The notes beneath the pieces are model-generated. The model searched no databases and was not told the origin of the DNA. It saw only the letters and a list, made by a program, of their open reading frames with translations. Shown here one piece after another: positions 1-13,633 of a stretch of DNA of 14,218 nucleotides; position 1 is the stretch's first letter; each line of letters opens with the position of its first letter. Source of the stretch: Elusimicrobia bacterium CG1_02_37_114 (GTDB lineage: Bacteria; Elusimicrobiota; Endomicrobiia; CG1-02-37-114); assembly GCA_001871125.1 (NCBI GenBank), contig MNXB01000049.1:1-14218 (forward strand), read 5' to 3'. A program made the translations under genes and the position numbers.

Positions 1-608
1 CAATATTCCATGAAGATGATGATTTTAAGTATTTTTTGAAGTTGCTAAAAGAGAATAAAGATAAAAGTGATATTAAGATATATCATTACATTTTGATGAA
101 TAACCATGTACACATAATATTAAAAGCAGTAACAGGTAAATCACTAAGTGAAACATTTAAAAGGATAAATATCAGTTATACGCTATATTACCGAAGGAAA
201 TACAAAGGTGTTGGACATTTCTTTCAGGACAGGTTCAAAAGTTTTTTGATACAGGATGGTAAGTATCTACTTGAGTGTGGTAGGTATATTGAAATGAATC
301 CTGTTAAGGCAGGTTTAGTAGCAGAACCCGCCCAATATAAATGGAGTAGTTATAGAGTATATGCAAATGGTGAACATGATAGTATCGTTGACATAAATCC
401 TGAATATGAATCATTAAGTAATGACAAAGAAAAAAGAGAAGTGATATATAAAGAATATGTGAAAGATAGTAATTTAGACAGAAGAAATGAAGGAAGATAT
501 TTCAAGATAGGTGCTTACGGTTCGAAAAATTTTATAGAAATGCTGAATGAAAAAGGATTGAAGTCTGCGTGGTCACATAGCGGTCAACCCAAGAAGAAGT
601 CAGAATAA
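1..608 (+). mobile_element. 5'-truncated HuH/Y1 tyrosine transposase (IS200/IS605 TnpA or RAYT-like, COG1943-type). The reading frame is open to base 3, so the true N-terminus lies upstream of the window.
   Basis: Extending the frame to the window edge gives IFHEDDDFKYFLKLLKENK..., then IKIYHYILMNNHVHIIL (the HuH motif, HVHII), FQDRF, YIEMNPVKAGLV and the C-terminal YKWSSY tyrosine motif. These are typical of Y1 transposases. Stop TAA at 606-608. Confidence 0.75.
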
Positions 609-612
609 GTAT

Positions 613-630
613 TAGAACCGTCCCCATTCT
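613..630 (-). repeat. One copy (reverse complement) of the GC-rich motif AATGGGGACGGTTCT, immediately 3' of the transposase stop.
   Basis: gaaccgtccccattc at 616-630. Its reverse complement matches 5613-5627 over 15/15 bases and 5315-5325 over 11/11. Confidence 0.45.
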
Positions 631-635
631 TTTTT

Positions 636-2534: not shown

Positions 2535-3284
2535 ATGTTGAGACCTGACCCCGTACCTATTTTAGAACTTAAGAATGTAACCAAATGTTTTAAAAAGTTT
2601 ATCGCTGTTGAGGATGTTTCATTTAAAGTTTTACAGGGAGAAATACTGGGGCTTATCGGGGAATCCGGCAGCGGTAAAACAACGATAGCAAAACTGATTG
2701 TAGGACTTCACAGACCTGACAGTGGAGAGATAATTATTGATGAATTAGCATCAAAAATACAACTGATATTCCAGGACCCTTATTCTTCTTTGAATCCAAA
2801 ACTTTCAATCGGGACTATAATAGGCGAAGTAATACACAGACGCTGTATGAATGATAATACAAAACTGTCACGAAAACAGATAGTTGAAGAAGCAAAAGAA
2901 TATCTTAATATTGTTGGTTTACCAATCAATATTCTGGACAATTATCCGCATCAGTTTTCCGGCGGACAGAGACAGCGGATAGCAATAGCCCGGGCCCTTG
3001 CCCTTAAACCAGGACTTATTATTGCTGATGAACCGCTGTCACAACTTGATGTCTCAATACAGGCACAGATAATAAATTTGTTTATGGAACTCAAGGAAAA
3101 ATATGGTCTTTCATATGTTTTTATTTCACATGATTTGCTTGTAGTGAACACTCTTTCCGATAGAATACTTATAATACAAAATGGCAGAATAGTTGAAGAA
3201 AATTCACCTGACAGGATTTTTCAAACACAGTCCACTGACTATACCAGAAGACTGGTTACCTCCCTGCCAGGATTTGATTTATAA
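2535..3284 (+). CDS. ABC transporter ATP-binding protein of the oligopeptide/dipeptide type (OppF/DppF-like).
   Basis: Walker A GESGSGKTT, FQDPYSSLNP, signature FSGGQRQR, Walker B IIADEPLSQLD, H-loop ISHDL. Shorter than the upstream ATPase, with no Oligo_HPY tail, which is the OppF-like pattern. Confidence 0.85.
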   Translation: MLRPDPVPILELKNVTKCFKKFIAVEDVSFKVLQGEILGLIGESGSGKTTIAKLIVGLHRPDSGEIIIDELASKIQLIFQDPYSSLNPKLSIGTIIGEVIHRRCMNDNTKLSRKQIVEEAKEYLNIVGLPINILDNYPHQFSGGQRQRIAIARALALKPGLIIADEPLSQLDVSIQAQIINLFMELKEKYGLSYVFISHDLLVVNTLSDRILIIQNGRIVEENSPDRIFQTQSTDYTRRLVTSLPGFDL

Positions 3285-3300
3285 GCGTAAGGAAATTATA

Positions 3301-3385
3301 ATATAAAAGGGTAAACCCTTAATTCCAGGAATTTATATAAAAGGGTAAACCCTTAATTCCAGGAATTTACCCTTTAGGGTTTTAC
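3301..3385. repeat. REP-like structured intergenic repeat, locus 1. It is a perfect 34-bp tandem duplication (3301-3334 = 3335-3368) of atataaaagggtaaacccttaattccaggaattt, followed by a second hairpin module accctttagggtttta.
   Basis: Read directly from the sequence. Each unit carries the hairpin AAGGG-taaa-CCCTT and the palindrome AATTCCaGGAATT. The trailing ACCC-ttta-GGGT is followed by TTTTA. It lies between the oppF-like stop and the cca-like start. Confidence 0.8.
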
Positions 3386-3390
3386 TTAAA

Positions 3391-4806
3391 ATGAATATAA
3401 AAAATATTATCAAGATATTATCTGGAAAAACAAAACCTGGCCAGAAAATATACCTGGTTGGCGGATTCCTGCGGGATGTTTTATTGAAAAGAAAAACCAA
3501 TGACCTGGATTTTGTTGTAAACAAAAATATTCGGGATTTTGTAAATAGCATAGCTTTGAAACTCAAAGGCAAAGTTATAATACTTGATGACCGGAACCGT
3601 ATATACCGCATAATCGTTTCAGGTAGCGACGGGGAAACCTGCAATTTAGATTTTTCACACATGCAGGGAAAAAATATTCAACTGGACTTAGATAGAAGAG
3701 ATTTCACGATAAATGCAATGGCAATGGATATAGAACACAAAGACATTATAGACCCATTCGGTGGTATTAAAGATTTAAATAATAAAATCATACGCAAAGT
3801 GTCGGACAGAATATTTAACGATGACCCGTTGAGGTTGCTGCGTGCATACAGGTTTCAGGCAGAATTAGGGTTTGACATTGAGCAGGATACCAGCAAACTG
3901 ATAAGAAAATATGCAAGGTTTATTAAGAAACCGGCAAAAGAAAGAGTCCGATACGAACTATTGAAGATACTCCAGACCAACGACTCATCAAAAATCGTTG
4001 ATGTCCTTGATAAACAGAAATTACTGGAACCAATCTTTCCTGAAATACTTGTTATGAAAAAAAGTGCCCGCAGGTTTTATTTTCATCCCGAGGGATTATG
4101 GCAGCATTCAAAAGAAAGCCTGGTAAGTCTGGAGATAATATTAAAAAATGTCAAAAAACTTTTCCCTCAATCTTCAGAAAAAATTATCAGGCATATAACG
4201 CCAAGAATAGGGCTAATCAAATTCATTACTTTGTTCCATGATTTAGCAAAACCTAAATCCATAAAAAGAATAAATAACAGAATAAGATTTTTCGGCCATG
4301 AGAGAGAGGGAGCGAAAAAAATCGCCAGGATTATGGGACGGTTAAAATTCAGTAACAAAGAAATATCTATTGCAGAGAAAATTGTAAAAAACCATATGAG
4401 ACCGGGAAATTTACTGCAGGCAAAAATACTTACTGAACGCGCAATATATCGTTTCTTCCGGGATTTGGGTGATGAAACCGTTGATTTGTTATTGCTTTCC
4501 TTTGCTGACAGGCATTCTTATCTAAAAATCAGAGCTACCAAAAAGGAAGTCTCTGACTATAAAAAATTTGCCGGGTTAATGATTGAAAAATTTTTTAAAC
4601 AAAAAGAACTGGAAAAGAGGGAAAAAATTGTCAACGGACATATAATAATGAAGAAATTCGGTCTAAAGCCAGGTCCGATAATTGGCAAATTATTAAAAAT
4701 TGTTGAGGAAAACTATATATTGGGGAAAATAAAAACCACAGAACATGCCTTAGAGTTTATAAAAACTAAATGCAAAAGATTGCTGAGAAATTTACAAAAC
4801 TCTTGA
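3391..4806 (+). CDS. cca: tRNA nucleotidyltransferase / poly(A) polymerase family protein with a C-terminal HD domain (CCA-adding enzyme-like).
   Basis: N-terminal head IYLVGGFLRDVLL (GGxxRD), DLDF, RRDFTINAMAMDI, DDPLRLLRAYRFQAELGF. C-terminal HD region HPEGLWQHS...FHDLAKP...GHE. Confidence 0.7.
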   Translation: MNIKNIIKILSGKTKPGQKIYLVGGFLRDVLLKRKTNDLDFVVNKNIRDFVNSIALKLKGKVIILDDRNRIYRIIVSGSDGETCNLDFSHMQGKNIQLDLDRRDFTINAMAMDIEHKDIIDPFGGIKDLNNKIIRKVSDRIFNDDPLRLLRAYRFQAELGFDIEQDTSKLIRKYARFIKKPAKERVRYELLKILQTNDSSKIVDVLDKQKLLEPIFPEILVMKKSARRFYFHPEGLWQHSKESLVSLEIILKNVKKLFPQSSEKIIRHITPRIGLIKFITLFHDLAKPKSIKRINNRIRFFGHEREGAKKIARIMGRLKFSNKEISIAEKIVKNHMRPGNLLQAKILTERAIYRFFRDLGDETVDLLLLSFADRHSYLKIRATKKEVSDYKKFAGLMIEKFFKQKELEKREKIVNGHIIMKKFGLKPGPIIGKLLKIVEENYILGKIKTTEHALEFIKTKCKRLLRNLQNS

Positions 4807-5312: not shown

Positions 5313-5325
5313 ATAATGGGGACGG
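5313..5325 (+). repeat. Partial copy of the AATGGGGACGG motif, overlapping the RBS region of the PIN-like remnant.
   Basis: aatggggacgg at 5315-5325, an 11/11 match to the other two copies. Confidence 0.4.
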
Positions 5326-5339
5326 AGGTAATTAAAACT

Positions 5340-5645
5340 ATGAAAAAACTTAAAATATATCTTGATACTTCTGTGATAAATTTCTTATTTGCTAATGATG
5401 TCCCTGAAGAAAAAGTAATTCCACCGCAAAAGATTGAAGATGCACAGCACATTGCCATTTCAACCTGTAACCAAATAGATATTCTTCTATCATGGAACTT
5501 CAAACATCTGGCTAATATACAGAAACAGATTTATGTTAAAATAGTAAATGAAAAAGAAGGTTATTTTTATCCGTTGATTTTAACAAATCCAATGGAGGTT
5601 ATATATGAGAAAAATGGGGACGGTTCTGATACTTTGGGAAAGTAG
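5340..5645 (+). pseudogene. PIN-domain-like nuclease remnant. The N-terminal strand and the C-terminal half are present but the middle roughly 60 aa appear to be deleted in frame.
   Basis: MKKLKIYLDTSVINFLFAND is a PIN N-terminal D-containing strand. It is joined after about 10 aa to ...EDAQHIAISTCNQIDILLSWNFKHLAN...EGYFYPLILTNPMEVI, which reads like a PIN C-terminus. RBS GGAGGT at 5325-5330, 9 nt before ATG 5340. This is too short for a complete PIN fold. Confidence 0.4.
5611..5628 (+). repeat. Copy of AATGGGGACGGTTCT inside the 3' end of the PIN-like remnant. It is the exact reverse complement of 613-627.
   Basis: aatggggacggttct at 5613-5627 equals the reverse complement of 613-627 (15/15), and 17/18 when extended. 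Confidence 0.45.
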
Positions 5646-6278: not shown

Positions 6279-6782
6279 ATGACTAAAAAAATTTTATTAT
6301 TGAGTTTACCGGTAATGTTTTTTGGTATGTGCGGTATCGCTCTATGTTTTTTAATGATAGGTGGTGACTGGACATCTGCGTTAACAGAAATAGTTACTTT
6401 CGGTAGCAGGGTCGTTTCTTCTGATGGGAATGTGTCGGTTATACAATCAGTAGGAAGCATCAATCTTGGCGGTGACAGGATTACAGGTGGTGATTACGAG
6501 GTTGTAGGCACTGTGGGTGCCGGGCTGATTACTATGGCTGGTCCTTCAGTAAACTTAGATAGTGTGAAGGTCTATCCCAACCCATATAAACCAGGCACAT
6601 GGACAATTTATGATAACTCTGTTCTTGGTGAAGGAGTTGTTTTTAGCGAGTTGACTGCGAATGCAAAAATAAAGATATTCAATATTGCAGGCGAATTTGT
6701 TGCTGACTTTGAAGAAACAGACAGCGACGGAAAATATCTCTGGGATACGCGAAATTCCAGCGGTGAGAAAATTGCCAGCTGA
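6279..6782 (+). CDS. Small secreted or membrane-anchored protein whose C-terminus resembles a T9SS type-A sorting domain (Por_Secre_tail) or a FlgD-Ig-like domain. It appears to lack the last roughly 15-20 aa of that domain.
   Basis: RBS AGGAGA at 6267-6272, 6 nt before ATG 6279. Hydrophobic N-terminus KKILLLSLPVMFFGMCGIALCFLMIGG. C-terminus KVYPNPYKPGT...AKIKIFNIAGEFVADFEETDSDGKYLWDTRNSSGEKIAS then stop, where CTDs normally continue GVYFY.... Confidence 0.5.
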   Translation: MTKKILLLSLPVMFFGMCGIALCFLMIGGDWTSALTEIVTFGSRVVSSDGNVSVIQSVGSINLGGDRITGGDYEVVGTVGAGLITMAGPSVNLDSVKVYPNPYKPGTWTIYDNSVLGEGVVFSELTANAKIKIFNIAGEFVADFEETDSDGKYLWDTRNSSGEKIAS

Positions 6783-7395
6783 CTCAAAAGGGACAACAAC
6801 TGCATCTTTCTTGAAAATCGGTGTTGGTGCGAGGAATATAGGACTTGGAGAGACAGGGGCAGTAAGTGAAGATGTAAATAGTGTGTACTGGAATCCTGCT
6901 GGATTAGCATCAATAAATGAAGGAGAAATATCACTGATGCATTCTGTCTGGCTGGAGACAATAAACTATGAACATCTGGCCTGCGGATTTCCTACAAAAT
7001 TTGGTAACTTGGGTGGTGCAGTAAACTATCTGTTTATGAGCGAGATGGATAAATATGACAATACCGGTGATAAACAATCGGAAAAAATGTCAGCAACAGA
7101 TATGGCTATAACACTGACATACAGCAGAAATGTTCTAATAAGATATAGATCTACCACAAAAGAACTTGAAGGAATTGCAGGTATAACTGCTGGTGTAGGC
7201 TTTAGATTCAGGGATTATTGTATTGACTATGCATGGACACCTTATGGCCAGTTGGGTGATACACATAGAATGTCATTATCAATGAAGTTCGGTAAAGAGG
7301 AAGAAGTAAAAAAAGAAGAAGTAGAAAAAAGAAGGCAGGAAGAGGAAGCCAGAAGGAAGAGCAAAAAATCGGCGTGTAGAAATCATATTGAATAA
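6685..7395 (+). CDS. PorV/PorQ-like (FadL-fold outer-membrane) protein fragment with a K/E-rich C-terminal tail. It has no signal peptide, and its 5' end overlaps the preceding ORF in a different frame, so it may be a frameshifted or fused pseudogene.
   Basis: ASFLKIGVGARNIGLGETGAVSEDVNSVYWNPAGLA resembles the conserved N-terminal motif of PorV/PorQ/FadL-like proteins (FLKIGVGARA.AMGGAF.AVADDASAIYWNPAGLA). Tail KEEEVKKEEVEKRRQEEEARRKSKK. The only in-frame starts upstream of the motif are TTG/GTG and are not preceded by a leader peptide. Confidence 0.4.
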   Translation: MQANLLLTLKKQTATENISGIREIPAVRKLPADSKGTTTASFLKIGVGARNIGLGETGAVSEDVNSVYWNPAGLASINEGEISLMHSVWLETINYEHLACGFPTKFGNLGGAVNYLFMSEMDKYDNTGDKQSEKMSATDMAITLTYSRNVLIRYRSTTKELEGIAGITAGVGFRFRDYCIDYAWTPYGQLGDTHRMSLSMKFGKEEEVKKEEVEKRRQEEEARRKSKKSACRNHIE

Positions 7396-7460
7396 ATAAA
7401 ATTTCGGATTGCTAAATGATAACTGGGTCCGGGGTTACAGGCAAATCCCGGAGGTTAAAT

Positions 7461-7481
7461 AATGGTCGGGCCGCCATTTTG
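7461..7481 (+). terminator. Weak candidate rho-independent terminator downstream of the PorV-like ORF: hairpin AATGG-tcgggccg-CCATT followed by TTTT.
   Basis: 5-bp stem (7461-7465 / 7474-7478) plus a T-run. It is part of a GC-rich patch, 7423-7476, that is unusual for this AT-rich window. Confidence 0.25.
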
Positions 7482-9019: not shown

Positions 9020-9793
9020 ATGAATTATCTGTATAATAACAAGACTATATTGAGAAAGATTAAAAAAAGTAATAAGATTTTACTTTTTCTTGATTATGAC
9101 GGTACGCTTACGCCCATTGTTTCAAAACCCGAAGCAGCAGTTTTATCGCACAGAACAAAAAAAATACTTAAAATATTATCAAATGATTGCAGGTTTATAT
9201 TGGTCGTCATAACAGGACGTTCTGTTTCCGACATAAAAAAACTTGTTGGGATAAACAGGATTATATATATTGGCAACCATGGGTTCGAAATAAAATTACC
9301 CGGCAAGGATATACTCTCTCCGGGAGACACAAAGAAACTGATGAAAGAAGTCAGTGCAGATATTAAATGTAGAATAAAAAACGTAATGGGAGCGTACCTT
9401 GAGGACAAAGGATTGACCCTGAGTTTACACTGGCGTAATGTAGATAAAGCGGATAATACTAATTTGAGAAAAATAACTAGAGGAATTAAGGAAGATTATT
9501 CCTCCAGATTAAGGTTTATTAAAGGCAAAAAAGTTTTGAATCTCGTCCCTCTGTCCGGGATAGATAAAGGGAAAATAGTGAATGCACTTTTAACACAGAC
9601 TGTTTCAACCCGGAATAACGTCTCTATCGTTTATATAGGCGACGATGTAACCGACGAATATGCTTTCAGAGAATTGAAAGGGAAAGGCATAACAATACGT
9701 GTAGGCAGGAATATTAAATCAAGTGCCAGGTATTATTTAAATAATACCGGCGAGGTCTATAAATTCTTATATTTCCTAAAGAGAATGTATTAA
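9020..9793 (+). CDS. otsB: Trehalose-6-phosphate phosphatase (HAD-IIB, OtsB-like).
   Basis: HAD motif I FLDYDGTLTP, motif III K...NLVPLSGIDKG, motif IV IYIGDDVTDE. Immediately downstream of the GT20 synthase. Confidence 0.7.
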   Translation: MNYLYNNKTILRKIKKSNKILLFLDYDGTLTPIVSKPEAAVLSHRTKKILKILSNDCRFILVVITGRSVSDIKKLVGINRIIYIGNHGFEIKLPGKDILSPGDTKKLMKEVSADIKCRIKNVMGAYLEDKGLTLSLHWRNVDKADNTNLRKITRGIKEDYSSRLRFIKGKKVLNLVPLSGIDKGKIVNALLTQTVSTRNNVSIVYIGDDVTDEYAFRELKGKGITIRVGRNIKSSARYYLNNTGEVYKFLYFLKRMY

Positions 9794-9794
9794 T

Positions 9795-10256
9795 ATGAAA
9801 ACTAAGGATATTATGACTCAATCTGTAACCACAATTACACGGGAAACAACTCTGAACAAAATACTTGATATTTTTAAAAATTTTCATACTTTTCCAATAG
9901 TACCTGTAATTGACGAAAATAAAAAACTTATCGGAGTTATTTCTCTAAAAAATATAGTAGAGATATTTGAACCTACAAAAAGTACCCTGATAAAATCAGC
10001 GCCATTCATTGACCAGAAGGAAGTAGATTTATTTGAATTAGAAATTACTGATGAAATGAAGCATTTATGTATAGCTGAAGATATGATGGAAAGTAAATTC
10101 GTTACATTGAATGAAGAAATGGATTTGAAAGAAGCATATAATCTTATGAGATTACATAATTTAGAGGAGATACTTGTAGTGAATAAAGAAAATATATTAG
10201 TAGGAAGGGTAGGTGTTTTTGATATAGTCCGTACAGTGTTTGTAACTAAAAAATAG
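9795..10256 (+). CDS. Tandem CBS-domain (Bateman) protein. Its start codon is 1 nt after the otsB stop.
   Basis: Two CBS-like segments: DIMTQSVTTITRETTLNKILDIF...IVPVIDENKKLIGVISLKNI and FVTLNEEMDLKEAYNLMRLHNLEEILVVNKENILVGRVGVFDIV. Confidence 0.7.
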   Translation: MKTKDIMTQSVTTITRETTLNKILDIFKNFHTFPIVPVIDENKKLIGVISLKNIVEIFEPTKSTLIKSAPFIDQKEVDLFELEITDEMKHLCIAEDMMESKFVTLNEEMDLKEAYNLMRLHNLEEILVVNKENILVGRVGVFDIVRTVFVTKK

Positions 10257-10266
10257 CAGATAAAAT

Positions 10267-11472
10267 ATGAATACCTTATTAACTTTAGGCGTAATTTTTC
10301 TATCGGCACTTGTACTTGCTAAGGTAATAGATAAAATAAAGCTTCCTTCTGTGACAGCATATTTATTATTAGGACTTTTAATTGGTTATTCCTTTTTTAA
10401 CATTATTCCTAATGAACTTATAAAAGCTACTGATTTAATTTCAAATATAGCATTAGGATTTATTGCATTTTCTATAGGCAGAAACTTCTCCTTCGATACT
10501 TTTAAACGGATAGGTAAGTCAATAATGTGGATTTCTATATTAGAAGCATCGGGAGCATGGTTAACTGTTACAATTTTATTCTTTTTGTTATTAAAACAGC
10601 CTATTTATATATCTCTCTTGTTTGGAGCTATATCTGCTGCAACAGCACCTGCGGCAACGGTTATGGTCGTGAGAGAATATAAGGCAAGAGGAAATTTTAC
10701 CAATGTACTTTTAGGAGTAGTTGCAATTGATGATGCATGGTGTTTAATAATATTTTCTATTTCGCTTGCTATTGCTAAGGCTTTGAATATCCCCGGAGTA
10801 AATCCTCATTTGATAAGAGTAATATTTAGCTCAATAAAAGAAATATTTGGTGCGCTTATACTTGGCGGAATCGTTGCTTTCATTATGTCTGTTTTAATAA
10901 AACACATACGAACACAGACAGAATTTCTTATATATACATTAGGATTTGTGTTGCTTAACACCGGGTTGGCTATATTGCTGCATTTTTCAGTTCTGCTCAG
11001 TAACATGTTTCTTGGAACGGTGATAATAAATATCAACAGAACAAGTGATAAATTTTTTGATACTTTAAGCAGTATTGATTCACCAATATATCTTTTATTC
11101 TTTGTCCTTGCAGGTGCAAATTTCGAGCTATCAGCATTAAAAAACATTGGTTTATTAGGGATATGTTATATAATCTTCCGTGTATCCGGTAAAGCATTAG
11201 GCGGATTCTTAGGCGGACAGATTTCCCAAGCACCTGAGAATGTAAAAAAATATATCGGATTAGGTTTGATTCCGCAGGCTGGTGTAGCACTTGGTTGTGC
11301 ATTGATAGCAAAAGCGAATTTTCCTTCTGTTGGTAGATTTGTATTCAATACAGTAGTTGCTACAACAATTATATATGAAATTATAGGTCCAATATGTACA
11401 AAACTTGCTCTACAAAAAGCGGGAGATATACCAACTTTTGTCAGTAAACCCATTGAACAGAAAAACATCTAA
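10267..11472 (+). CDS. Cation:proton antiporter (CPA2 / Na_H_Exchanger family, KefB/NapA-like membrane domain). It has no fused RCK/TrkA regulatory domain.
   Basis: Polytopic membrane protein, about 12 hydrophobic segments. LLLGLLIGYS, ALGFIAFSIGRNFSF, VAIDDAWCLIIFSISLA, GLIPQAGVALGCALIA are CPA-like signatures. Confidence 0.7.
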   Translation: MNTLLTLGVIFLSALVLAKVIDKIKLPSVTAYLLLGLLIGYSFFNIIPNELIKATDLISNIALGFIAFSIGRNFSFDTFKRIGKSIMWISILEASGAWLTVTILFFLLLKQPIYISLLFGAISAATAPAATVMVVREYKARGNFTNVLLGVVAIDDAWCLIIFSISLAIAKALNIPGVNPHLIRVIFSSIKEIFGALILGGIVAFIMSVLIKHIRTQTEFLIYTLGFVLLNTGLAILLHFSVLLSNMFLGTVIININRTSDKFFDTLSSIDSPIYLLFFVLAGANFELSALKNIGLLGICYIIFRVSGKALGGFLGGQISQAPENVKKYIGLGLIPQAGVALGCALIAKANFPSVGRFVFNTVVATTIIYEIIGPICTKLALQKAGDIPTFVSKPIEQKNI

Positions 11473-12558: not shown

Positions 12559-12626
12559 GGAATTCACCCTTTAGGGTTTTATCCGCAGGATTATCTAATT
12601 TATAAAAGGCTAAAGCCTTAATTCCG
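12559..12626. repeat. REP-like structured repeat, locus 2. It is a diverged copy of the 3301-3385 element with the two hairpin modules in swapped order, a circular permutation, flanked by GGAATT...AATTCC.
   Basis: ggaattcaccctttagggtttta at 12559-12581 versus ggaatttaccctttagggtttta at 3362-3384. tataaaaggctaaagccttaattcc at 12601-12625 versus tataaaagggtaaacccttaattcc at 3302-3326. The stem pair G:C changes to C:G (AAGGG/CCCTT to AAGGC/GCCTT), which preserves the hairpin. Confidence 0.75.
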
Positions 12627-12763
12627 TCAAAAAAGAAATTCCTATACTATTAAATTAAAGCTTTTGGCTCAAGATTGGGGGTGATGAAAAAAACTAAAAG
12701 AGATTGTTAATTCGGAAAAACATTTCCGAGAGTAGTCTAATAATTACAAAAGGAGGCAGAAAA

Positions 12764-13633
12764 ATGTACGACGATGATTTAACTAAGGGTATAAATAAGG
12801 CAAAAGAGAAAATGCAGTCCGTAATGAAAAAAGGGCCGCTGATACCCGTGCTTATTATTGCGGGTATTCTGATATTTTTCATGTATTTAGCGCCCTGGGT
12901 CCAGATTGGGCCTGGTGAAAGAGGAATTGTCCTTAATTTTGGCGCTGTTCAAAAGAACGTATTTGGAGAAGGGCTGCATTTCAGGATACCTGTGGTGCAG
13001 AAGATTGCCGTAATGGATGTCAAGGTTCAGAAATCCGTAACAAATGCCGCGGCTGCATCGTCTGACCTTCAGGAAGTGACCTCGGATGTTGCACTTAATT
13101 ATCACATAGTGCCGGACAAGGCAAATCTTGTCTATCAGAATATAGGTGTACAATTTAAGGAACGAATTATAGACCCTGCGGTGCAGGAGGTGGTAAAAGC
13201 TGTGACAGCCAGGTATACAGCAGAAGAGCTTATCACAAAGAGGCCGGCAGTAAGCGAGGCAATGAGAGCAAACCTTGCTGAAAGACTTTTAAAGCATAAT
13301 ATAGAGGTTGACGCATTTTCTATCGTCGGGTTCAGCTTCTCCAAGGCATTTACGGAAGCGATTGAGTCAAAACAGACAGCGGAACAGCTTGCGCTAAAAG
13401 CAAAGAGAGACCTGGAGAGGATAAAGATAGAGGCAACACAGACAATTACAGCAGCCAGGGCAGAGGCCGAATCCCTGAGACTCCAGAAAGCAAATATTTC
13501 AACCGACCTTATAGAACTCAGGAAAATAGAGGCAAACCTTAAGGCTATAGACAAATGGAACGGGATACTGCCTCAGGTTACGGGTAGCGGTGCAATACCA
13601 TTTATAGGAGTAGGAGACATACAGAAAAAATAA
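12764..13633 (+). CDS. SPFH/band-7 (prohibitin/stomatin-like) membrane protein.
   Basis: RBS AGGAGG at 12751-12756, 7 nt before ATG 12764. N-terminal TM LIPVLIIAGILIFFMYL, then GERGIVLNFGAVQKNVFGEGLHFRIPVVQKIAVMDVKVQ (band-7 core) and a long A/E/R-rich coiled-coil tail. Confidence 0.75.
   Translation: MYDDDLTKGINKAKEKMQSVMKKGPLIPVLIIAGILIFFMYLAPWVQIGPGERGIVLNFGAVQKNVFGEGLHFRIPVVQKIAVMDVKVQKSVTNAAAASSDLQEVTSDVALNYHIVPDKANLVYQNIGVQFKERIIDPAVQEVVKAVTARYTAEELITKRPAVSEAMRANLAERLLKHNIEVDAFSIVGFSFSKAFTEAIESKQTAEQLALKAKRDLERIKIEATQTITAARAEAESLRLQKANISTDLIELRKIEANLKAIDKWNGILPQVTGSGAIPFIGVGDIQKK

Follow-up and report, generated by a model that had tools for sequence, protein, structure and literature searches.

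Two loci in the 14,218-nt contig of Elusimicrobia bacterium CG1_02_37_114, the whole of which was analysed here (hereafter the window), are very probably clusters of a REP repeat associated with a RAYT (REP-associated tyrosine transposase), locus 2 (12559-12625) in the REPIN form and locus 1 (3303-3385) in the form of a three-arm BIME. The kind of repeat is already known. As described in PMC8266576 and PMC6006769, E. coli and Pseudomonas carry REP, REPIN and BIME elements as short palindromes spread across intergenic DNA, with a domesticated HUH/Y1 transposase located among its own REPs. By contrast, the present REP family of 24-nt arms is apparently undescribed. A literal sequence search with the motif strings gave no occurrence in searchable papers, no family of Rfam 15 matches either window locus even at E <= 10, and none reached its gathering score in 20 external arm loci.

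The repeat unit and the two window loci

The unit shared by both loci, here called an arm, comprises 24 nt of the form GGAATT-N-A-xyz-TTYA-z'y'x'-TTTYAT, in which xyz and z'y'x' are complementary stem triplets. Its parts are a 5' flank (GGAATT-N), a 5-bp hairpin (A-A-xyz / z'y'x'-T-T) with a TTYA loop, and a 3' flank (T-Y-A-T). Locus 2 is a head-to-head doublet of two inverted arms, 67 nt in total: a plus-strand arm at 12559..12582 (GGAATTCACCCTTTAGGGTTTTAT, i.e. GGAATT-C-A-CCC-TTTA-GGG-TTTTAT; 38.8 bits, E 5e-6, with covariance model R1), a 19-nt spacer at 12583..12601 (CCGCAGGATTATCTAATTT), and a minus-strand arm at 12602..12625 (ATAAAAGGCTAAAGCCTTAATTCC; 42.1 bits), which on its own strand reads GGAATT-A-A-GGC-TTTA-GCC-TTTTAT. 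Locus 1 begins with a perfect 2 x 34-nt tandem (3301-3368), followed by ACCCTTTAGGGTTTTAC, and contains three arms. Two minus-strand arms with stem GGG/CCC lie in the first and second tandem units (3303..3326, 40.7 bits; 3337..3360, 40.8 bits), and a plus-strand arm with stem CCC/GGG (3362..3385, 40.4 bits) stands tail-to-tail with the latter. The duplicated unit also includes a truncated plus-strand arm head, GGAATTT, at 3328..3334 (weak R1 match at 3324-3342, 10 bits), which together with the AATTCC just before it forms an AATTCC-A-GGAATT palindrome. Over the window, R1, whose training set included the window arms, detected exactly these five arms at 38.8-42.1 bits, the next-best match scoring 12 bits.

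The initial annotation, made from the letters of the window, had reported that hairpin sequences of locus 1 recur at 12559-12626. The recurrence is real, the letters are as it described them, and the repetition is far above chance: AAGGNTAAANCCTTAATTCC occurs three times in the window against 0.07 expected, a count reached in 0 of 200 shuffles, and GGAATTNACCCTTTAGGGTTTTA twice against 0.00 expected. The start was placed correctly, but the motif stops at 12625, one base earlier than proposed. The same annotation had distinguished two modules, B (the plus-strand arm of locus 2) and A (the minus-strand arm), in circularly permuted order with respect to locus 1. Although the swap in order is seen, the modules are not distinct. 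The reverse complement of module A (GGAATTAAGGCTTTAGCCTTTTAT) equals module B at 19 of 24 positions, and the five mismatches fall on the free position N and on two compensated stem pairs, so that A and B are one unit on opposite strands and the permutation is better described as head-to-head versus tail-to-tail arrangement of a single 24-nt unit.

To the right of the doublet lies an extension at 12626..12650 of the plus strand (GTCAAAAAAGAAATTCCTATACTAT), with a weak R1 match on the minus strand at 12630-12646 (8 bits). This 25-nt extension, RTYAAAAAGGAAATTCCTATRYTAT, is present at four of five insertion sites of the doublet, namely the window and three of the other four (L046, L061, L093), and ACTTA closes the left flank at three of the five sites. 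The extension may be a decayed third arm or may reflect a target preference.

Both loci lie between co-directional genes and start 15-18 nt past a stop codon, the location that REPs prefer according to PMC3733652. In locus 1, the final arm stops 5 nt short of the ATG (3391) of the gene for the CCA-adding enzyme and so stands where a ribosome-binding site would be; the Band-7 gene at 12764, unlike the CCA-adding enzyme gene, has a clear AGGAGG. Between the two loci, an nhaA-I (Na+) riboswitch was identified at 7425-7479 (plus strand; 54.3 bits against a gathering score of 37). The genes directly downstream of it encode OtsA and OtsB (trehalose synthesis), a CBS protein, a Na+/H+ exchanger and MscS, a run that looks like a sodium-responsive osmoprotection operon.

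Stem covariation, copies and arrangement of the arms

A difference between the module A stems of the two loci (AAGGG/CCCTT versus AAGGC/GCCTT) had been taken in the initial annotation as a G:C to C:G change that keeps pairing, and as a sign that the hairpin is under selection. The difference is real and pairing is kept; it is the difference between two arm subtypes and one case of a general rule. This rule emerged from arms collected without any stem requirement, the stem positions being left free. Among 176 distinct arms so collected, 152 were fully complementary in their triplets. When 128 distinct arms were aligned without gaps, 89.4% of the cells of the 5-bp helix were paired, compared with 65.5% in shuffles, and 140 cells were changed on both sides, compared with 52. 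The covariation score was 0.52 against 0.11, a value reached by 0 of 500 shuffles, and all slid controls were far lower; stem substitutions in this larger alignment are thus compensatory well beyond chance. These counts are per sequence and not per evolutionary event, and two triplets, GGC and CCC, supply much of the signal; at least 11 different perfectly paired triplets are in use. The hairpin of the arm is kept by selection, through many compensatory stem variants. Folding energies contribute little to this: as DNA, single arms form very weak hairpins (-1.9 and -3.5 kcal/mol), and because the fold of locus 2 taken in its entirety is no more stable than that of its shuffles (z = -1.2), the case for the hairpin rests on covariation and not on energy.

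Copies of the arm were sought in other genomes. Scanning one genome per species for the exact motif gave 42 loci, of which about 24 carry the bipartite motif and the rest are chance matches, several of them in coding sequence (e.g. hemL). A metagenome scan with flanks and loops fixed and both stems free added 56 loci. Arm-bearing MAGs carry the labels Dehalococcoidia, Chloroflexota, Bacillota, Parcubacteria, Peribacteria, Desulfobacteraceae, Planctomycetes, Latescibacterota, Neomarinimicrobiota and Thermodesulfobacteriota; in all, arms were found in MAGs assigned to more than 10 phyla, at loci whose GC content ranges from 0.32 to 0.65. Over all loci, 27 of 262 arms detected by regular expression lie inside long ORFs, in a set that includes the chance coding matches. 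No match was found in 2.9 million viral contigs, and a phage origin of the arms was rejected on this count.

Longer versions of the window contig are available, all of which carry the two loci without any difference. They reveal a third, intergenic cluster of four arms 4.4 kb beyond the window (L099, 16932-17021), bringing the arms in about 32 kb of the source organism's contig to nine, every one intergenic. In related metagenome contigs, the identical 67-nt doublet is found at three other sites, and a short version lacking the spacer at a fourth (L061). One of these copies adjoins a tRNA gene and one lies within a larger inverted-repeat element. The related contigs L047 and L058 carry the 67-nt doublet as part of a larger, roughly 150-nt repeat whose ends are the inverted repeats GTAATTGTTTAGC...GCTAAACAATTAC; this larger repeat occurs in two different genomic contexts. 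In six loci labelled Chloroflexota or Bacillota (L022, L024, L053, L056, L068, L083), a canonical 55-nt doublet is placed between conserved GC-rich flanks (...GATCGCCGAGGTCGCTGAGATTTCC / CTGCGTCTTCTGCGTGCTCCGCGGT...), which have the look of an imperfect inverted repeat from a separate repeat family.

Arms occur singly, as inverted pairs, as direct repeats and in arrays (L079, L090, L095, L111, L113). Distinct neighbour pairs comprise 54 head-to-head, 33 tail-to-tail and 20 direct ones. Spacers between arms measure 4 to 44 nt, and head-to-head doublets 46-73 nt. The stem triplet is shared by direct neighbours in 16 of 20 pairs, in contrast with one of 54 head-to-head and one of 33 tail-to-tail pairs. 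Inverted neighbours are thus heterotypic, so that the two arms of a doublet cannot pair into a single long, perfect hairpin and local hairpins are favoured. Regular arrays of heterotypic doublets were observed in L095 (10-268, period 93 nt), L092, L060 and L111 (9060-10591, period about 91 nt); since their linkers are conserved as well, these arrays were tandemly amplified. Inspection of the flanks of the listed copies revealed no consistent target-site duplication, which is the expectation for insertion of the Y1 type.

A RAYT gene flanked by arms

All ORFs within 2.5 kb of arms were translated and clustered without preselection. Apart from duplicates on the same contig, the recurrent neighbour was a single divergent family (41-62% identity) present at five unrelated loci. 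Its product has about 177 aa, an HHPPH N-terminus, the HUH motif NHYH and the tyrosine motif NYIHHNPVKHG. The four members scanned all match Pfam Y1_Tnp and all exceed the cutoff of NCBIfam NF047646, "REP-associated tyrosine transposase" (84-111 bits, cutoff 80), whereas the IS200 model gave 21 bits at best against a cutoff of 55. One member matched E. coli TnpAREP (PDB 4ER8) with E 1e-12. The gap from arm to gene end is 5-40 nt, at both ends wherever the locus extends; the contig of L029 holds the downstream flank only.

Six more homologues (47-60% identity) were fetched blind from 330 clusters, and all six proved to be arm-flanked, four with canonical or near-canonical arms and two with recognisable variants. 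Altogether, arms directly adjoin the RAYT gene in 11 of 11 loci examined, all from other organisms. Canonical arms are numerous in L111 (Latescibacterota), with 13 upstream and six downstream of the RAYT gene, and in L113, with about 25; L112 has canonical arms too. A minimal locus is found in L114 (Falkowbacteria, 9969-10560), where a plus-strand arm 12 nt upstream of the gene and a minus-strand arm 5 nt downstream form with it a unit that is inserted between ftsW and murG of the cell-division cluster and looks like an IS. In most RAYT loci a plus-strand arm stands by the start and a minus-strand arm by the stop of the gene, L048 and L092 being exceptions; this is the geometry of window locus 2 with a gene in place of the 19-nt spacer. 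More distant homologues are accompanied by variant arms, as in L108 (GGAATACACCCTTTAGGGTG) and L110, and RAYT and REP appear to co-evolve, arm variants tracking RAYT divergence in L108, L110 and L114.

Two observations concern the surroundings of these genes. In L113, a pair resembling a diversity-generating retroelement (bAvd and a reverse transcriptase, 2818-4320) lies 1 kb from the arm-rich RAYT locus. The RAYT homologues of L110 and L115 share a neighbourhood of HAD hydrolase, aminotransferase, phosphoglycerate dehydrogenase, lactamase_B and DUF3006, followed by RAYT, which suggests vertical inheritance of RAYT in that Chloroflexi-like lineage. Protein P0089 was considered as the RAYT of the window organism and rejected for its Chloroflexi-like syntenic context.

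In the window organism, whose genome is fragmentary, a tblastn search of the contig of about 32 kb and of related metagenome fragments yielded no cognate HHPPH-type RAYT; its sole find was an unrelated gene of the TIRYT type. The window itself opens with the 3' part of a different Y1/HUH gene (3..608, plus strand; 226 aa when complete), which bears motifs NHVH and YIEMNP and scores 78.7 bits with NF047646 against the cutoff of 80. By comparison with the classes of PMC6006769, this gene is TIRYT / subclass 2.1-like and not the partner of the GGAATT arms. Its terminal inverted repeat AAGAATGGGGACGGTTCTAATACTT lies at 607..631 (minus strand), with the partner upstream of the gene, outside the window. 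In L105, three genes of this type, which carry NHVH and YIEMNP, are contained within 10 kb (121-801, 6440-7363 and 9293-9973), the gene at 3-608 of the window being a truncated one of them. Two encode 226 aa and one 307 aa with a DnaA_C-like tail, and they are wedged in an oligopeptide ABC transporter operon with gaps of about 26-28 nt. Their own inverted repeats are AAGAATGGGGACGGTTCTRATACTT, or CATGGTGACAGTCTTTAC / GTAAAGACTGTCACCATG, and the repeat AAGAATGGGGACGGTTCT... is close to the GGGGWSAS consensus of TIRYT elements. As each of these Y1 genes is flanked by its own, different inverted repeats, they were rejected as partners of the arms. Solo repeats of the GGGGACGG type, copies of the terminal inverted repeat at 607..631, also occur in the window away from any Y1 gene, at 5315-5332, overlapping the start codon of a 109-aa ORF at 5316, and at 5613-5634, near the end of that ORF and just upstream of an ORF6N-domain gene.

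By analogy with REP/TnpAREP and IS200/IS605, the hairpin of the arm would form on transiently single-stranded DNA, where the cognate HUH/Y1 RAYT (TnpAREP) would recognise it together with the flanking motif, cut beside it and rejoin the strand. Such cleavage and rejoining would spread arms or doublets into intergenic sites. On the same analogy, the RAYT would be the enzyme that mobilises the arms and ssDNA its substrate, and the organism of the window presumably has, or once had, a RAYT of this sort. Strictly heterotypic doublets might fold into a defined four-way junction, and this junction could be the real substrate.

Competing readings and known systems

The initial annotation had left a choice between a substrate for a hairpin-recognising HUH transposase and a structured RNA element. 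Direct support was obtained for the former, through the Y1/HUH family that arms flank in all 11 loci examined and whose four scanned members exceed the RAYT cutoff. The latter, in which the repeat acts in cis as an RNA (a terminator, an mRNA-stabilising 3' structure, a regulator or a ribozyme), is improbable. The corresponding fold would be a small four-way junction with outer stem GGAAUU/AAUUCC, two 5-bp hairpins and inner stem UUUYAU/AURAAA. Arm covariation fits RNA pairing equally well, both loci are co-directional, intergenic and just past stop codons and thus probably transcribed, near-identical sequence across phyla is odd for a selfish repeat, and RNA-level action of REPs has been reported for other bacteria (PMC3733652, PMC8266576). 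An RNA role, however, leaves unexplained the tight tie to a DNA transposase gene, and it is at odds with arms that occur singly, in both orientations and in long arrays. G-T and A-C mismatches within arms number 7 and 6, respectively, and this balance means that neither strand is favoured and is of no help in telling RNA from DNA. Nor did the Rfam searches described above recover a family at the window loci or, at gathering score, at the external ones. No T-run follows any hairpin on the plus strand at either locus, and an intrinsic terminator was discarded because the one terminator-like site is weak and on the opposite strand. A self-cleaving ribozyme, considered in view of the apparent circular permutation and the junction shape, was likewise discarded, as the hammerhead core CUGANGA is absent on inspection and no Rfam ribozyme matched. 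An RNA-level function as mRNA 3' structure might at most be a secondary role of the arms.

That the arms are dsDNA binding sites for a host protein (a nucleoid protein, gyrase or a regulator) with a part in chromosome structure and no mobility is very unlikely. E. coli REPs and BIMEs are reported (PMC3479197) to bind host proteins, IHF among them, and a protein making sequence-specific contacts would be well served by the conserved flanks GGAATT and TTTYAT. A reader of dsDNA, however, would not demand triplets that vary freely while staying complementary, and the flanking of RAYT genes by arms and the identical copies at unrelated sites would be left unexplained; binding of host proteins could be a secondary role at most. 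Hardly credible is a MITE whose two arms are terminal inverted repeats bound as dsDNA by a DDE transposase: head-to-head doublets of 46-73 nt with 24-nt inverted ends do resemble very small MITEs, and identical doublets are present at several sites, but single arms, direct arrays and tail-to-tail pairs are common, the spacer varies from 4 to 44 nt, the listed flanks lack a consistent target-site duplication, covariation inside each arm is unexpected for such a repeat, and the only recurrent neighbour gene is of the Y1/HUH and not the DDE type.

Other candidates were set aside on anatomy. The window copy GGAATTCACCC lacks the AAC core of an integron attC site, RYYYAAC/GTTRRRY ends are missing by inspection, arm arrays have no ORFs between arms, and no integrase recurs nearby. 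A CRISPR repeat, a recombinase core site, an uptake sequence and a type III antitoxin array were rejected because arms occur in both orientations with spacers of 4-44 nt, have neither cassettes nor unique spacers, and lack a matching partner gene.

The reading of the loci as REP clusters agrees with several of the features that define known systems. The arm, with its 24 nt, 5-bp stem and 4-nt loop, falls within the 20-50 nt of a hairpin-forming REP; inverted doublets and alternating clusters reproduce REPIN and BIME organisation; a RAYT gene lies among the same REPs, as in a REPtron, in all 11 loci of other organisms; and the associated proteins combine the HUH motif and a Tyr in Y---NP with scores over the RAYT cutoff. 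A feature that differs is the tag, GT[AG]G or CGTC in canonical REPs (PMC3733652). Column composition of the 128 arms shows no such tag and an invariant GGAATT-N-A 5' of the stem, and for this reason the arms are not canonical GTAG-REPs. Untagged, "atypical" REPs are known for TnpAY1 subclass 2.6 and class 3 (PMC6006769), whose tnpAREP genes, like the RAYT genes studied here, can be flanked by non-GTAG secondary structures.

The closest parallels are the REP/BIME elements and TnpAREP of E. coli (the REPtron, group 2 / subclass 2.2). Both systems have short extragenic palindromes as single copies, inverted pairs and arrays; in both, inverted partners belong to two alternating REP subtypes (Y and Z in E. 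coli BIMEs, heterotypic stems here); and in both a single HUH/Y1 gene, encoding a homologous protein (the 4ER8 match above), lies among its own REPs. By contrast, where the arm has GGAATT-N, a 5-bp stem, a TTYA loop and a conserved 3' flank, the E. coli REP shows a GTAG tag on its 5' side and a stem that is long and bulged; it is also lineage-specific, whereas the arms are near-identical across many phyla. Pseudomonas REPINs (RAYT group 3 / subclass 2.5) share with locus 2 the unit of two inverted REPs with a short spacer, and with the arms a short, perfect stem; the apparent co-evolution of RAYT and REP noted above is a further likeness. They differ in that the arms have no GTAG tag and the two stems of a doublet are systematically unlike, and the Pseudomonas RAYT carries DH[LF]H (PMC6006769) in place of NHYH and the HHPPH N-terminus. 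TnpAY1 subclass 2.8 (Quentin et al. 2018, PMC6006769), with which the present family was compared by description, is similar in its HYH motif, Pro-rich N-terminus and relatives in unrelated phyla, and dissimilar in its long canonical GT[AG]G REPs. IS200/IS605 elements (IS608) likewise combine a Y1/HUH enzyme with subterminal ssDNA hairpins and no target duplication, and the minimal L114 locus is IS-like; but the protein described here fits the RAYT and not the IS200 model, tnpB is missing, and the hairpins spread without the gene.

For the window, a candidate "novel structured RNA" is replaced by a concrete, testable identity. As a kind of bacterial repeat the family is ordinary; its distribution is unusually wide. 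Arms break metagenome assemblies and could pass for regulatory RNAs, which makes the covariance model of practical use. Being untagged and short in the stem, the family offers a compact substrate-enzyme pair for the question of how a Y1 enzyme recognises a minimal hairpin, and it also serves the question of whether REPtrons move between phyla.

To our knowledge, work on REP/RAYT systems has been almost confined to Proteobacteria, in which REP sequences are lineage-specific, and the current view holds REPIN-RAYT systems to be lineage-specific and vertically inherited. Near-invariant REPs were found here under the labels Elusimicrobia, several CPR groups, Chloroflexota, Desulfobacterota, Planctomycetes, Latescibacterota and Marinimicrobia, with host GC of 32-65%. 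We tentatively consider, at somewhat less than even chances, that they represent an undescribed REP/RAYT lineage in which the 24-nt REP is nearly invariant across phyla. If so, either REPtrons have been repeatedly transferred horizontally or the substrate requirement is unusually strict, and each option would contrast with the view of REPIN-RAYT systems as lineage-specific and vertical.
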